A DNA stretch of 64,000 nt from Carcharhinus longimanus (Eukaryota), in assembly GCA_030264375.1 (NCBI GenBank), contig JASCQW010000027.1, positions 47,081,579-47,145,578 of the forward strand, read 5' to 3'. A program made the position numbers and the translations under genes. Shown here one piece after another: positions 5,680 to 63,489 of the stretch (within the stretch, counting starts at the first letter, position 1; each line of letters opens with the position of its first letter). Below the pieces are notes generated by a model that was not told where the DNA came from, did no database searches, and saw only the letters and a program-made list of their open reading frames with translations.

Positions 5680-5910
5680 AAAAACAGAAAATGCTGGAAA
5701 ATCTCAGCAGGTCTGACAGCATCTGTGGAGAATGAATATACCCAATGTTTCGAATCTGGATGACCCTTCATCAGAGCTCTAGCGAAAGGTCATCCAGACA
5801 CGAAACATTGGCTACATTCTGTCCTTGCAGATGCTGTCAGACCTGCTGAGATTTTCCAGCATTTTTTGTTTTTATTCCAGATTCCAGCATCCACAGTATT
5901 TTGCTTTTTT
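5680..5910. mobile_element. Palindromic Penelope-terminus element with hammerhead cores
   Basis: Inverted arms of about 95 bp centred on agag|ctct (5773-5780); minus strand reads CTGATGA-A-GGGTC-ATCCA-GATTC-GAAAC. Confidence 0.8.
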
Positions 5911-6952: not shown

Positions 6953-7024
6953 AGGCGTATAGCTCAGTGGTAGAACATTTGACTGCAGATCAAGAAGTCT
7001 TGTTTCCTGATCCAAAAGCCTCCT
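6953..7024 (+). pseudogene. tRNA-Cys(GCA) pseudogene
   Basis: TATAGCTCAGTGGTAGAACATTTGACTGCAGATCAAG matches the vertebrate tRNA-Cys D and anticodon arms; T-arm/B-box and acceptor stem are degenerate. Confidence 0.85.
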
Positions 7025-7035
7025 TCCTTGTTTAT

Positions 7036-7352
7036 GGGTGGCACAGTGGTTAGCATTGCTGCCTCACAGCGTCAGAGACCCAAGTTCAATTCCCGGCTTG
7101 GGTTGCTGTCTGTGTGGAGCCTGCACGTTCTCCCTGTGTCTGTGTGGGTTCCCTCCAGGTGCTCTGGTTTCCTTCTACATCCCAAAGATGTGCGGTTTAG
7201 GTGGATTATCCATGCTAAATTGCCGCTTAGTATCAGTGGACTAGCTAGGGTAAATGCATGTGGTTACTGGGCTGGGGCCTGGGTGGATTGTGGTCGGTGC
7301 AGACTCGATGGGCCGAATGGCCTCCTTCTTCAGTATACGATTTTATGATTCC
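7036..7352 (+). mobile_element. HE1-like (V-SINE) SINE with CR1-type tail
   Basis: tRNA-like head ggtggcacagtggttagc...gttcaattcc; V-domain-like body; gactcgatgggccgaatggcctcc tail. Confidence 0.88.
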
Positions 7353-7692
7353 ATGAGGAAAAGTTACCTGAACCATATAAAATTAGCCAGGAATGTGTTC
7401 CAGAGGCAAATCTCAGGATTAAGTTGGTTGTGATAAACTTCATTACTCCTTTAATTTAGGTAACTGTGTTGCTCTTTACACCACAGACTCGATCTGTAAG
7501 GAAGACTCTTCGGTTATTTTGTAAGTTGATACATTTGTCCAGTGAGTCATCAGCTAACTAATATCGTATTAATTTCATACAGGAGATGAATTTCATTATT
7601 TTTATTCGATTGATGAGTAGCCTGGTTTTGCATTCTGCAATTACTATGTTGGAAGTCAGTTGACGATGAATAATTCTCTTTGTATATTACAG

Positions 7693-7872
7693 AATTTCTG
7701 GAGCTGCTGCAACAGTCTCCTCAGAAATCTGCTGCAAGAGGCTGCTGGTATGGAAGGAGTCCGTCTTTGTGATGCCACTCATTGTAAGGATCCCCAGGGT
7801 TTTGTTTGGTGGCTGGTGACTCACCTTGCAATGCTTTATGTGTTCGATCGGAATGGAATTACGCAGGAGAAG
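7693..7872 (+). CDS. MMS22L: MMS22-like DNA repair protein, internal coding exon (phase 0-0)
   Basis: ttacag|AAT...AAG|gtatag; 180 nt; NFWSCCNSLLRNLL...KDPQGFVWWLVTHLAMLYVFDRNGITQEK resembles recalled human SFWNWLNKLLKTLL...RDPLGFSWWIITHVASFYKFDRHG. Confidence 0.93.
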
Positions 7873-18152: not shown

Positions 18153-18715
18153 CTGATAAAGCGAATTAATATTAATTTCTAAACAGCTAATTTAGTATTG
18201 AGTCCCACTATGCCTGAGAGTTCACTTCTTTTTGATACTTGGAGTAGGATAGCTTGATCTTGGGTTCAGACATAGCTCGGCACAACATCGAGGGCTGAAG
18301 GGCCTATACTGTGCTGTACTGTTCTATGTCATTTATCAAACAAAATCCCATGCCTTATAATTCTCAAGATACTGCAATGAAAAATGAGAAACCTGGATAC
18401 TCGAGCATTGAAGTGAAAGTCATGCTTTTCTGAATGAAAATAGTTACATTTGTTAAAACTTATCATTAATTTGTTTTTCCATGGAATAACATCAGATCTT
18501 TGACAGAACAGTTTTTCGGCAAACCTTTCTTAACTCTTAAATTTGTAAATTTGTGATTTTGTTAAGTCATGTGGTGGAACCTGGAGTAATAGCACCTCCA
18601 TAAGGTCATCCCACCTCTTCCACCGTACTGAAAACATTCCAGATGTGCTTCTTAGAATATTTTGCCTGTTTCCATTTCTGCTAAATGAAACTAAGCAACC
18701 TCATTAATTTTCTAG

Positions 18716-19225
18716 GATTTATTCCAAGTTCCATCAGCGAAAAATGCAGGAACTTACCGAATTGGGACTTCAGAACTTCTTCAGCCTTTTTCTAGTCCTT
18801 GCAGCAGTGGCCGAGATAGAGGACGTTGTCAGCCGGGTATCAGATCTCCTGGACTTTTTAAAACCTAGCCATCTCTCTGTAGCCCAGCAGTCATTGATTT
18901 GGAAAGGCTACTTTGCTTTTCTTCTGATGTACGAAGAGAAGAATGTTGATATTAGTGTTCTTGCTACAAAACTGTCAACGAACTTCCAGAATGTAACTAA
19001 AGAGTTCTACCTGAAAACTACAGACCACGCCCGAAAAGTGACCCTCTGGCCGTTGCTGTCAACATACATTGAAGCTGTTCAGGAGGTATTCGAAACAAGC
19101 CCCTATCTGCACCTTTCAGAAGAAAAACTGTTGAATGAAGGGTTTAGTTTGCTCTATCGTGCCTGTAGGGAATCTGAATTGAACACAGCACTGTCATTTT
19201 TGCAGGTTGTGTTGGCTCGTTTAAG
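18716..19225 (+). CDS. MMS22L: MMS22L large internal coding exon (phase 2-2)
   Basis: ttctag|G ATT TAT...TTA AG|gtgagt; 510 nt; IYSKFHQRKMQELTELGLQNFFSLFLVLAAVAE...RACRESELNTALSFLQVVLARL, strongly similar to recalled human MMS22L. Confidence 0.97.
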
Positions 19226-19964
19226 GTGAGTGGACATTCACTTTAATTTATATCTTATGACGAGGGTTTTCCTCAACTTTGCTCTGCATTTTTCTTTTAG
19301 GTTTTCAATGATATTTCTAAAGATACAAATGAATGAAGTTATCATTGAAGTATTGTTGCTGAGCATCGCATAAACAAACTTGGTGGGCTTTTTTAAACCT
19401 TCGGCCTGGAGATTTTACTGGGTTGTTGGATAATTTAATACTGCATGGTGAATAGGCAATGGTTAAAGCTTGCATTCAGTTCTGAGTCAGGAGATAATTT
19501 GCCTCCAAAGAACAGATCAATATAACTTCTGAGAATCTTTGTGGGAACAGTTTTTAACCTAGATAGTTGATGTATGCTTGATAGATTTTATCTCAGTGAG
19601 AAGCCAGAACTATGTTGCACTGATGTCAAACTTGTATTGTGAATGCATAGGGCAACCCTGAGGGGTGGGCAAGTAATCCAACAGAGTCTGTGTGTTGTCT
19701 GCGTCTGATCATTTATCAATTCATATTGTACATTGTGCAGTGGCTATCGTTCTGACTACCATTTTGGGATAATCCCCAAATTGACAGGAAGAAGATGGAG
19801 TGCCATTCCACATTTTGCTGTTAGCCCACTCCTTTGTTGTCTCTTTAGAACACAGTCATATCCGAAGTGTTTGAAGTTTAATTAAGTTTTTACATTTTGA
19901 CAGAACTGACATCAGCTGTGACTGAGGTTTTCCTTTGTCAATGAATGTCCTGATGTTGAGTTAT

Positions 19965-38760: not shown

Positions 38761-39271
38761 AGACTATGCCGCCTCCTGCTGGCAGGTTGCATTCTGGCTT
38801 CGTCTTTTACATGGAGAAAGAAATTTGCCAAGATCTTTCTTTACTGGCTTGTTGCACCTTCATGTGGGCTTTTTGCCAGACTATGATTATGGAGCAATGT
38901 AGCGTTTTATGCCGGTTTTCTGTCTTCCTTTCTTTTACCCAGAAATATAACACGTGGCTCACCAAAACTTCAGGATTTGCATTTCAAATGGAATATAGCT
39001 TCAAAAAAGATGCTCTGTGTGCGTGTGTGTGTGTTTAATAGGCATGCTATTAGTTTTAAATACAGAGAGTATTCCAGTGTGTAAATAGTCTTCAATAGAG
39101 AACTCTTCACTTAAAAGGCCATCATAAGTACAGAACATGGTATGTTCGTTTTAAAAGTCTGAGACAGCAGCATAATTTGTTATTGTTAAAAGTATTTCAG
39201 AGAGATGTTGCCAGTCATCTGACAGCATGTGCTGAAGAGTTCATTCACAATGGCCACGCTGCAGGTGCTCC

Positions 39272-39359
39272 CCTTCAATAGCACAGCTCGTAGAGTCGAG
39301 GATTGTAGATGATTCAAACGGACATCCTTAGGTCGCTGGTTCAATTCCAGCTCAAAGGA
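39272..39359 (+). pseudogene. Intron-containing tRNA-Tyr(GTA), probably a pseudogene
   Basis: CCTTCAATAGCACAGCTCGTAGAG...TGTAG-[15-nt intron 39309-39323]-ATCCTTAGGTCGCTGGTTCAATTCCAGCTCAAAGGA; several CpG>CpA changes disrupt the stems. Confidence 0.88.
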
Positions 39360-39377
39360 AGCCCAATATTCATTTAT

Positions 39378-39690
39378 GGGCAGCACAGTTGCATAGTGGT
39401 TAGCACTGCAGCTTCATGCCAGACACATGGGTTCGACTCCTGGCTTGGGTCAGTGTCCGTGCGGGATTTGCATGTTCTCTTGTGTCTGTGTGGGCTTCCT
39501 CTAGGTGCTCCGGTTTCCTCCCACAATCCGAAAGAGGTGGTTGTTAGGTGCATTGGCTATGCTAAATTCTCCTCAAGTGGACCCGAACAAGCGCTGGATT
39601 GTGGCAATTAGGGGATTTTCACAGTAACTTCATTGCAGTGTTAATGTAAGCCTGCTTGAGACTAATAAATAAGCTTTAAAACTTTAAAAA
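39378..39690 (+). mobile_element. HE1-like SINE (alternative tail)
   Basis: gggcagcacagttgcatagtggttagc head; cagtaacttcattgcagtgttaatgtaagcc tail. Confidence 0.87.
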
Positions 39691-42600
39691 CTTGGATGAT
39701 TCCATCAAGCCTATGAATTGAGTCAGGCTTTAGTGATGTCGCAAATTAAAAGCAGTTGTCATATGCAACTGGTTAAAAATCTAATTTGCAATCTAAGATT
39801 AACGTCTCATTTAAATTGTAGCTGGTTATTTTTGTTTTAAAGTTGATGTATTAGTATCATAAGTAGACTTCATTAATACTGCAGTGAAGTTAAAGTGAAA
39901 ATCCCCTAGTCGCCACACTCCAGCGCCTGTTTGTGTACACTGAGGGAGAATTTGCTTGTGTTCAGAAAGCCATCCTTTAAGCCGTTCTTCTATATGGGCT
40001 GCCATTTACTTCATTCTCCGTTGTGCAGGGTCCTAAATCAGCTGGCAATCATTGTTTGCAAACTTTTGGAATGCGGCCAGTTGTATTTTACTGTATTTGC
40101 AGAGAAGGTATTAATCTAACATTGCAGAATTTACACTTTTTGCAACTTATATCAGAGAAAATGGGTTTTAGTTACTTGCATTTTGGAAACACGGTACAAA
40201 CAACTTGTAATCCTCAGAACCACTAGTACCAATTTCAGCACTTGGAGGAGCAGGAGGCAAAGATTTATGTCATCAATCTTCAATAAAACATTCCTGTACC
40301 ATCAAGTTGGAGAATGTGGGGAAGAAAGGTTGTGATTTTTCACCATATTGTGACATGTTTTTATAGAATTGGTTTTAAAACCAATATTGAATGTACTTGT
40401 TGTTGAATATAAAACTAACATAAACCTCGCAGAAATGACTTGATTTGTGTTCCATCCTGGCTTCCCCCCCTCTCTAATCCAAAAAGAAACCAGTCATTGC
40501 CTCATGCATGTGTGTATGTTTGATGATACAAAGGGAGATAGTGGTATTAACAAAGAACAACACAGCACGGGAAACAGGCCCTTCGGGCCAACGAGCCCAC
40601 GCCGCCATTTTAATATTGTGAGTTCCCTCTTCCATCCATGACCTTTGTCTACGCCTATGGCACTCCACATTGGAAACCAGATTGAGGGGAGACTAATTTA
40701 GGGACAATTTGATTACACCAATCAGCCTAANNNNNNNNNNNNNNNNNNNNNNNNNNNNNNNNNNNNNNNNNNNNNNNNNNNNNNATGTGGTTGACTCTTA
40801 ACCGCCCTCTGAAATGGCATAGCAAGCCACTCAGTTCAAGGGCAATTAGGGATGGGCAACAAATGCTAACCCAGCCAGTGATGTCCACATCTCGTTATAG
40901 AATACAGGGGGGGAGAAAAGGCATTTTCTTGGGAGCATACTCTGTAGATTTTCACTTGTATTATGTGCGCTAACAGATTGACCACCCATTTTACACATTA
41001 CCAGACTTTCACCTTGCGGTAAAAGTGAAAATTCACTGTGTTGAGTCACCCCATTCAGTATCGTTAAATGGAACTTCATTTCTTATTTGAATGTTCTCTA
41101 AGACAGAAAACGAAGGCTTATGACTTTAATGGAATATTGTCAGTAGAACAGCATACTTGATCGGTATTTTGAGCACTAAGGCGGTTAATAAAAACTGAGT
41201 TCAGATTTCTAAACTTTTAAGTACCAATTAGGAGGAAGGCTCCATCACTGATCCCGCTCCATTAAATGGAACAACCCTTCCATATGTTAACCTACCCATA
41301 TCTCCTTGTGCAAGTTTTAAGCATATAGCAATTCTTAACACTTTCAGAATTAATTTGTTCACTCTTTCTTTCACAAATTTGGAATCTGAGAAATAGTTTT
41401 CAGCCTGCGAAACATGCGAAGCCTTTGTCCTCTGTGGGAGTCCTCTTTTTGTGGTAACTGGATGGTTCTTAGGCCACTTGTGTTTCAACTGTTGCAACAA
41501 CAGATTAACAGAGAATGGGATATCGATTTAATTGACTATGCACAACAGCCCCTTATGTTATATCACTTTCTCAACCCTGCCTACAGCTTTGTGTTATCTG
41601 CAGTGTTCCAGTGAAAGAACTCTCTGTTCCATTCTGTCTCTTTTTTTTCCTCTCCTTACTCTTGCCTTCCCAATTATGAATCATTCTAGCTTATCTGCAG
41701 TTGGGGTTAATTAATGCTGAGACCATCCAGGAGCCCAAATAAAGGCTTGATGGGTGCAGTTGCAATTACTACTTAGGTTTCTTTGGAGATTGCAGCCTGT
41801 GATTGCTTTGAATTGGACAGATGCAGGACAATAGCCAAAGGTTGAATGCTATGTAAATGAAATATGGAGAGGAATGGCTGGAGAGAAAGACAGATTCTCT
41901 GTAATAAGAGGTAGAATTAAGTGACCTTTTCAGAGTAGAGCTTTGGCTTTTAACTGTAATTCTAGGACAGGACTAACAATTTAATCAGCAGGAGCTTCTG
42001 GCAAATTACCAAGTACTCAGTGTATACATAGCAGTAAAATGATGTAAAGCTAGGTGCTAGTCTTGATAGCTATGTGTTATCACACTCAAAAGAGAGAGTT
42101 GAGGCCCTGTCAACTATTTAGAAATTGAGTTTTTTTTCATTGTCCTCCAGAGAAGTAACTAAAATGTTTCCCTGTTCCAGTGATTATAATTGAACTGCTT
42201 ACCATTTCCAATGCATTGCGCAGAGTCCCATAAAAGGTATTTCAACTAACAATTAACATTCAAAGAAAATGTTTATTCCAAAATGTCCAAACGATGTCCA
42301 CTTGAGATGATAGGCAGCAAAAACGAACTGCTTTGGTGAAAGAATGGTGGTCTGGTTCGACTCTCGCCTTGTCTCCGAATGAATTCCGTTGTGACCTTGT
42401 TGAACAGCTTTGCTACTTTTGCACTTTTGTCTGAATCACAGCTCTTTTTCTGCATCAACTAATCTAGCATTTTCTGTGGGGACGGTGAAAGGAATATGAA
42501 AAAGTATGCAAATTGTGTGGTGCGTAACAAAAGTGACTACGTATCGAAAATACTTGATTGGTTGTGAAGCACATTAGAACATCCTGAGGACATGAGAAGT

Positions 42601-62990: not shown

Positions 62991-63192
62991 AAAAGCAAAT
63001 TACTGCGGAGGTTGGAATCTGAAACCAAAAGAGGAAATGCTGGAAAATCCCAGCAGGTCTAACAGCATCTGTAAGGAGAGAAAAGAGCTGATGTTTCAAT
63101 TCCAGATGACCCTTTGCCTTGAAACGTCAGCTCTTTTCTCTCCTGACAGATGCTGCCAAACCTGCTGAAATTTTCCTATATTTTGTTTTTGG
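62991..63192. mobile_element. Palindromic Penelope-terminus element
   Basis: Inverted arms about 63025-63099 and 63119-63192; GAAACGTC at 63121-63128. Confidence 0.8.
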
Positions 63193-63489
63193 TGTTCAAG
63201 TTCCATTTCGGTATTCTTCATTACAGGGATAATCCTATGAACAACTACAATACTATTATATGTTCAGTCTTTAACGTCATAAAAGTCCCTAGGTGCATCA
63301 CAGAAGCTCTGTGAAGCAAAATTTGACACAGAACGTCACAAGGTGATTTTGTGGCCAATGGCTAATTACTTGTTACGTGGATAAATTTTAAGGAGTACCT
63401 TAAAGGACAGAGAGGTGGAGGGTTTTTGAATGGGAATTCCAGAGCTTAGGTCCTAGACATATTAAGGCACAGCCATCACTGATGTTTTA

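Follow-up and report, generated by a model that had tools for sequence, protein, structure and literature searches.

Two tRNA relics in a 64,000-nt stretch of Carcharhinus longimanus DNA (contig JASCQW010000027.1, positions 47,081,579 to 47,145,578; here called the window) are each followed on the same strand by an HE1-like SINE. At four other loci with this arrangement the tRNA and the SINE entered the genome as one co-insertion, and the same would hold for the window's two units. We suggest that a LINE reverse transcriptase (RT) probably finished copying the SINE RNA and then switched to the U-rich 3' terminus of a pre-tRNA, giving an insertion in one piece. Since both parts are missing from the empty sites and a SINE is seldom attached to near-intact tRNA copies, the units are mostly independent co-insertions and not the result of SINE targeting or of one dimeric SINE.

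The tRNA-Tyr(GTA) unit (Table 1) has the layout described in an earlier note on this DNA, with a 15-nt intron, a trailer ending in TTT, the dinucleotide AT and, 18 nt past the tRNA, a SINE on the same strand. The RF00005 match at 39272-39359 scores 34.5 bits against a cut-off of 29 bits, and the nearest intact gene seen is L004. The copy also retains a 5' leader that is absent from the earlier note. Leader columns -6 to -1 are conserved in 8-15 of the 15 full-length Tyr copies, and columns from -8 outward in 4-8. ARAGORN called no tRNA gene in the whole window, passing over both the Tyr and the Cys relic, and the Tyr locus is almost certainly a dead, inert copy. Its AT linker is likely to be either non-templated or an extension of an RNA end; AT also stands ahead of 8 of 26 SINE heads from an unbiased sample and at the U6-5S join of a chain of small RNAs (L214) described below. 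Some 150-220 nt downstream of the unit lies an inverted piece of the SINE 3' part (39834-39953 on the minus strand, matching 39564-39682 on the plus strand).

Table 1 Features of the two tRNA+SINE units and their gene context in the window.
Feature	Position	Strand	Basis or remark
pre-tRNA-Tyr copy, whole	39265-39375	+	decayed; leader, intron and trailer up to the T-run
5' leader of tRNA-Tyr precursor, 7 nt	39265..39271	+	column conservation among 15 full-length family copies
tRNA-Tyr(GTA) 5' exon, decayed	39272..39308	+	Rfam RF00005
tRNA-Tyr intron, 15 nt	39309..39323	+	common to the dispersed Tyr family
tRNA-Tyr 3' exon	39324..39359	+	CCA not encoded
3' trailer, 16 nt, ending in Pol III T-run (TTT)	39360..39375	+	trailer sharing in the Tyr family
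AT linker	39376..39377	+	between Tyr trailer and SINE; differs among units
HE1-like SINE, full length, tRNA-derived, tail type A	39378..39690	+	tail typing
tRNA-Cys(GCA) relic, second unit	6953..7024	+	Rfam 20.3 bits; BLAST to Cys genes
9-nt trailer ending in TTT, plus AT	7025..7035	+	trailer recurs at L299 and L055
HE1-like SINE, tail type B, head without first 8-nt unit	7036..7356	+	tail typing
MMS22L exon, host-gene context	7693..7872	+	Pfam MMS22L_N, E 3e-19
Further MMS22L exon	within 18708-19226		E 6e-81

For the Cys unit the earlier note had claimed the same layout. This is correct as regards the order of tRNA, TTT-ended trailer, AT and SINE, but the sequence 'tttatggg' does not mark the same join in the two units, whose SINEs differ in tail type and in the presence of the first 8-nt unit of the head. 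The Cys relic is weak, with an E of 0.14 for the Rfam match (6953-7022) in a 601-nt stretch searched, and BLAST aligns 54 nt of it at 91% identity to Cys genes. Its trailer is found again at one locus where the SINE is joined at a different point (L299) and at one without a SINE (L055). BLAST with a library of 110 tRNA sequences detected no third tRNA relic in the 64 kb, in line with the two that the earlier note had found. Elsewhere in the genome, a large tRNA-Cys cluster of duplicated units occupies 8.1-8.25 Mb of G000:C154 (L032-L050, L197), and many of its tRNA-Cys genes have a TTTA-type stop signal alone behind them. The Tyr unit lies in the MMS22L region; Pfam identified an MMS22L exon in none of three ORFs downstream of it, so that an intronic placement is a mere possibility. 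Near-perfect long hairpins at 63013-63205 and 5680-5873 represent a repeated element with arms that are 79-85% complementary. They yield sub-threshold matches to miRNA families and are probably a MITE-like repeat.

The SINE heads appear tRNA-derived from weak BLAST matches to Gly and Glu tRNAs and from some ARAGORN calls. We follow the earlier note in calling the element HE1-like, a putative assignment. HE1 is a V-SINE with an 80-bp V-domain and a tail derived from HER1. It is listed as a V-SINE of sharks and rays (PMC3747384, PMC4824008). Background rates were taken from sixty stretches of 10 kb whose round coordinates had been fixed in advance (520,989 non-N bases). This sample holds 114 SINE 5' ends, which extrapolates to about 5x10^5 copies per genome, and the chance of a same-strand SINE head in a given interval of 50 nt is 0.55%, a rate so low that chance juxtaposition is excluded. 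None of the 114 heads has a tRNA ahead of it (as judged with a tRNA library that was without some isotypes), one is preceded by the head of a second SINE, and the sole tRNA that these stretches contain is a near-intact copy of tRNA-Ile. The window is atypical in this respect, with a tRNA ahead of 2 of its 6 SINE heads compared with 0 of 114 in the unbiased sample, and on these counts we rejected the view that tRNAs accompany a large fraction of the SINEs. The tRNA+SINE units account for well below a few percent of all SINE copies. Scaled crudely from a strict junction motif that recovered 1 of 20 known Tyr units, their number in the genome would be on the order of 10^3. At one SINE locus (L136, near 1155 on the minus strand) the first ~26 nt of the SINE are present in four tandem repeats, each opening with AT, perhaps as a result of repeated jumps at the 5' end.

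A genome search with the tRNA-Tyr and its trailer gave 40 matches, 37 of which were classified. The trailer (at least 8 of 12 nt) is common to 27 of these 37 loci, and 20 of the 27 have a SINE within 50 nt against the 0.55% expected (binomial p 5e-40), an enrichment of HE1 heads downstream of tRNA relics of the kind that the earlier note had proposed to look for. Leaving aside the query, the intact gene L004 and a cluster paralogue (L007), 24 dispersed copies remain. All but one have a retro-partner: the HE1-like SINE in 19, a second SINE in 2, a LINE 3' end in 1 and an RPS29 retrocopy in 1. The exception (L018) has the same trailer and no partner. The LINE fragment (L021) is 5'-truncated and presumably of CR1 type. 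Homology among the Tyr copies extends 6-7 nt upstream of the tRNA and then falls to background level, and no flanks were found that the copies have in common with each other or with L004. Because homology stops at the leader and the flanks are not common, the copied unit is the primary transcript. The close paralogue L004 was found, and the exact source gene was not among the loci examined. A pattern distinguishing spliced from unspliced Tyr copies with the family trailer gave no matches; the known copies also fail this exact pattern.

The RPS29 case (L013:1494-2030; G000:C184, ~6.27 Mb) consists of a pre-tRNA-Tyr, a complete intronless RPS29 mRNA copy without poly(A), and a SINE, and is a possible three-template insertion. 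General towing of mRNA retrocopies by the SINE was rejected: 1 of 18 RPS29 retrocopy 3' ends is followed by a SINE, and many end in A-runs. Base 37 of tRNAs is modified. Four of nine shortened Tyr copies (those matching from query position 16 or later) have their 5' end precisely where the 3' exon begins (L027, L292, L293, L294), and all four retain the trailer with the SINE next to it. They may derive either from a cleaved splicing half or from an RT stop at the modified base.

Whether the parts arrived together can be read from empty sites. Both flanks of 54 units were searched against the DNA gathered, and eight units have repeat matches on both sides. At four of them (L003, L006, L086, L197) a paralogue exists in which the flanks are adjacent and tRNA and SINE are both missing. 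The left flank of the empty site ends 13 nt ahead of the tRNA at L003 and 7 nt ahead at L006, where a duplication of 6-7 nt is possible. L086, a Glu unit, sits inside a different SINE copy, and L197, a repeat unit of the Cys cluster, differs from its paralogue by a single gap of ~385 nt (gain or loss) that has fuzzy edges and starts 17 nt upstream. The paralogue of L067 is ambiguous, with about 100 nt of host sequence missing. No paralogue with the tRNA but without the SINE was seen among the units with matches on both flanks. The flanks of the window's own two units are unique among the loci compared and gave no empty site; a search of other organisms with the upstream flank of the Tyr unit returned chance pieces of 36-41 nt alone, none of them reaching across the unit. 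Target-site duplications (TSDs) around the whole unit and around the SINE alone, a comparison raised in the earlier note, showed no excess over shuffled pairs in 28 units (p 0.27 and p 0.24), and none was detectable around the window's two units; the elements are old, and TSDs of this kind measure 1-9 bp (PMC4476161).

Retroelements that target tRNA genes include TRE, Ty3 and Dewa. By analogy, pre-tRNA retrocopies or tRNA genes could have been in place first, with the SINE inserted later at their Pol III terminators. A few units located in tRNA clusters (L197, L032, L030), a true SINE insertion near a T-run (L065) and solo copies with the same trailer (L018, L055) agree with this order of events. 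It conflicts with the four empty sites, none of which was seen to keep the tRNA alone, and with the distribution of the SINE among tRNA copies of different preservation. In loci not chosen for the SINE, it is carried by 2 of 70 near-intact, 3 of 20 intermediate and 16 of 46 decayed copies (near-intact versus decayed, Fisher p 4e-6; many of the intact rows are their own reference). Unbiased SINE heads lie at a T-run in 1 of 26 cases. Mean divergence is 7.4% for the tRNA and 12.1% for the SINE, with a correlation of rho -0.47 (p 0.075, n 15), and nothing here indicates a greater age for the tRNA than for the SINE, in a test confounded by mixed subfamilies and hit selection. Moreover, an mRNA retrocopy, 5S and 7SK also occupy the partner position, copies beginning with the 3' exon have no A box, so that transcription of them is not expected, and the Tyr units have no flanks in common with the intact gene L004. 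Targeting of Pol III terminators, one of the models in the earlier note, is accordingly disfavored and, in our judgement, very unlikely.

The units could also be descendants of one or a few founders, if SINE insertions behind tRNA genes had produced read-through dimeric masters that were then amplified as composite SINE families. One Tyr precursor does dominate many copies, some of which share a junction. Two chimeras (L008 and L015) pair in the tree with a support of 0.70, and for tail type B six of eight chimeras have another chimera as nearest neighbor, by small margins and via two hub copies. Against such masters, junctions vary, and the same precursor stands ahead of both tail types (7 A, 8 B) and is found joined to the second SINE, to the 3' end of a LINE and to an mRNA; these tails and non-SINE partners exclude the single read-through dimeric SINE considered in the earlier note. 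Mean identity within the chimeric SINE bodies is 0.81, compared with 0.80-0.81 to random copies, so that the bodies are no more alike than random copies, with which the tree intermixes them. The T-run between the two parts would, in addition, stop Pol III. We regard amplification from dimeric masters as the least probable of the explanations considered. The units are mostly independent events, and a minor secondary amplification may have affected some of them.

Joins beyond the Tyr family were collected with the strict motif (T-loop, 16-34 nt, TTT, SINE head), which has 84 exact matches in the genome and none in a reversed control. Among 30 of the 84 loci, 17 were assigned to tRNAs of several isotypes and 11, of which one is doubtful, to the head of a second SINE, leaving 2 unassigned. 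When the motif is given the CCA end of a mature tRNA instead, it has one match, a SINE head, and thus no join to a CCA-ended tRNA. Among 19 joins found without a T-run in the motif, 12 have TTT within 7 nt, compared with 1 of 26 unbiased heads. From the latter count a general preference of the SINE for T-runs was rejected. The junction common to the window's two units, which the earlier note had treated as a telling feature, is not distinctive: TTTATGGG is found at 8 of the 84 junctions (counted by eye), and 'tttatggg' as a fixed joint was rejected. The linkers vary among joins from 0 to 3 extra bases. The second SINE, also tRNA-derived, contributes its first ~105-125 nt ahead of the HE1-like SINE at 10-11 loci in the series L061-L090 and at L126:3905-4097. 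Its head is cut at an internal T-rich point, and of the seven cases with a readable right flank the remainder resumes past the SINE tail in one (L065), which is a true SINE insertion near a T-run.

Other U-tailed RNAs are found in the same position. A SINE lies within 8 nt of 7 of the best 30 U6 copies and within 14 nt of 2 of 8 further copies, and follows 1 of 30 U1 copies (U6 7/30 versus U1, Fisher p 0.052). Among 7SK copies, one of four that are full-length and non-gene has a SINE, and none of 15 that are 3'-truncated. Two loci contain chains. At L214:1501-2031 (G000:C150, ~23.486 Mb), U6, 5S rRNA and 7SK are arranged head to tail on one strand, each beginning at Rfam model position 1, and no SINE stands behind them. 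At L217 (G000:C162, ~7.16 Mb), a U6, a tRNA-Glu with its trailer and a SINE follow in series, again with complete 5' ends, the U6-tRNA part being assigned by Rfam. Several 7SK copies (L316, L319, L322, L323, L326) and U6 loci (L204, L222) have the same repeat context on both sides, which suggests that a site-preferring element mobilizes them. Clear direct repeats of 10-15 nt flank further U1 and 7SK copies (L282, L285, L291, L313, L320, L321); these are L1-type tailless retrocopies and represent a second retro-pathway in this genome.

The empty sites without both parts, the end of homology at the leader and the variation of partners and junctions all favor the first model of the earlier note, a retro-chimera of pre-tRNA and SINE, and the following sequence of steps would account for them. 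Target-primed reverse transcription starts on the LINE-derived tail in SINEs in general, and we infer such a start here. The RT would then copy up to the 5' end of the SINE, consistent with the full-length heads observed, add 0-3 bases and engage a nuclear RNA ending in U3-4. The jump itself is modeled on R2 biochemistry: the R2 RT jumps serially, solely from the template 5' end, onto free 3' ends (PMC8594491), and RT jumping requires non-templated addition (PMC8857657). On the new template the precursor would be copied either to its 5' leader or to a stop at the first base of the 3' exon, both of which are seen as endpoints, and the joined cDNA would integrate as one unit, as it has at the four loci with empty sites and as it presumably did in the window. 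Such jumps may run in series.

Alternatively, the two RNAs could have been ligated first, by RtcB-type ligation as for human U6/L1, and the chimeric RNA then retrotransposed as a unit. This route accounts equally well for co-insertion and for the empty sites, and the 5'-truncated partners at L011, L021 and L297 could supply 5'-OH ends. Most partners, however, begin at their natural 5' end (SINE heads, as well as 5S and 7SK, which open at position 1 of their Rfam models), and the RPS29 partner begins at a pyrimidine-rich start. The natural 5' ends of SINE, 5S, 7SK and mRNA transcripts carry a triphosphate or a cap. RtcB acts on tRNA splicing substrates; it joins a cyclic phosphate to a 5'-OH, both of which it requires, and a triphosphate at the 5' end lowers ligation strongly (PMC6789731). 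Pre-tRNAs are described as ending in UUU-OH and not in a cyclic phosphate, and the variable extra bases at the joins are unexpected for ligation. Prior ligation is therefore unlikely as the origin of most units, and we prefer template jumping by the RT.

A broader proposal, on which we are evenly divided, is that the LINE RT jumps serially, end to end, onto U-tailed nuclear RNAs of the germ line and has left fossil cDNAs, numbering on the order of a thousand, in which stages of pre-tRNA processing are preserved. Among them would be the trailer-bearing Tyr copies that start at the 3' exon and chains of the U6-5S-7SK and tRNA-mRNA-SINE type. If true, these would form an in vivo record of the order of tRNA maturation and of how the birth of a SINE begins, and would provide stringent LINEs with a means of dispersing tRNA genes together with promoter and terminator. 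The units are likely to be fossil snapshots of immature nuclear RNAs. A switch from SINE to tRNA is the usual proposed origin of SINE heads and is normally deduced from single founding events; with many junctions preserved, the substrate rules become readable, namely a precursor and not a mature tRNA, a join at the U-run, 0-3 added bases and serial jumps. The findings widen a U6-centered view of the non-L1 machinery to the Pol III transcriptome. They also explain a class of dispersed tRNA pseudogenes, which will confuse tRNA annotation in such genomes.

Use of a tRNA, including pre-tRNA, as a nuclear retro-template is shared with the tailless tRNA and human pre-tRNA retropseudogenes of Schmitz et al. 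2004, as cited in PMC4476161 and PMC2912911. According to these sources, those copies are made by L1, 3'-truncated, flanked by TSDs and without a 3' partner. The human U6/L1 chimeras (Moldovan et al. 2019, PMC6789731) likewise consist of a small RNA followed by a retro-RNA in one insertion; their partner is described as 5'-truncated with a 5'-OH, whereas most partners here are 5'-complete.

Gain of a tRNA at the SINE 5' end during reverse transcription has parallels in PittSINE, which is reported to have arisen when the template switched from TguSINE1 to tRNA-Asp (Suh et al. 2017, PMC5729268), and in the 5' additions to SINE heads discussed in PMC4494074, PMC4824008, PMC7245038 and PMC5499810. 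It has been proposed that new SINE families are born by such a gain (PMC5729268, PMC4494074, PMC4824008). The accounts in these three papers concern single founding events, deduced from families whose head was replaced or extended and then amplified. In contrast to these, many one-off events are preserved here, with the terminator still between the parts and no daughter family shown.

In the open literature (subscription journals, repeat databases including Repbase, and supplements lay outside this scope) we found no report of recurrent pre-tRNA/SINE chimeras. The class of small-RNA/retroelement chimeras is known, with U6 as its member, and as far as this literature shows it is the pre-tRNA passengers that are new. 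Closest to our units are the chimeras in which U6 is joined to Mon-1 in platypus, AnolisSINE2 in lizard, L2 and RTE (Doucet et al. 2015, PMC4476161). The available text of that survey deals with snRNAs and does not contain the word 'shark'. In both cases a U-tailed Pol III RNA precedes a SINE or the 3' end of a stringent LINE and was inserted with it. The U6/SINE chimeras have a short TSD (1-9 bp) or none and are ascribed to template switching (PMC4476161), and the U6/SINE joins at 7 of the best 30 U6 copies place the present genome alongside them. Unlike the chimeras described there (PMC4476161), those reported here involve many tRNA isotypes in unprocessed form, still bearing leader, intron and trailer, as well as 3'-exon halves, 7SK, 5S, the head of a second SINE and serial chains.
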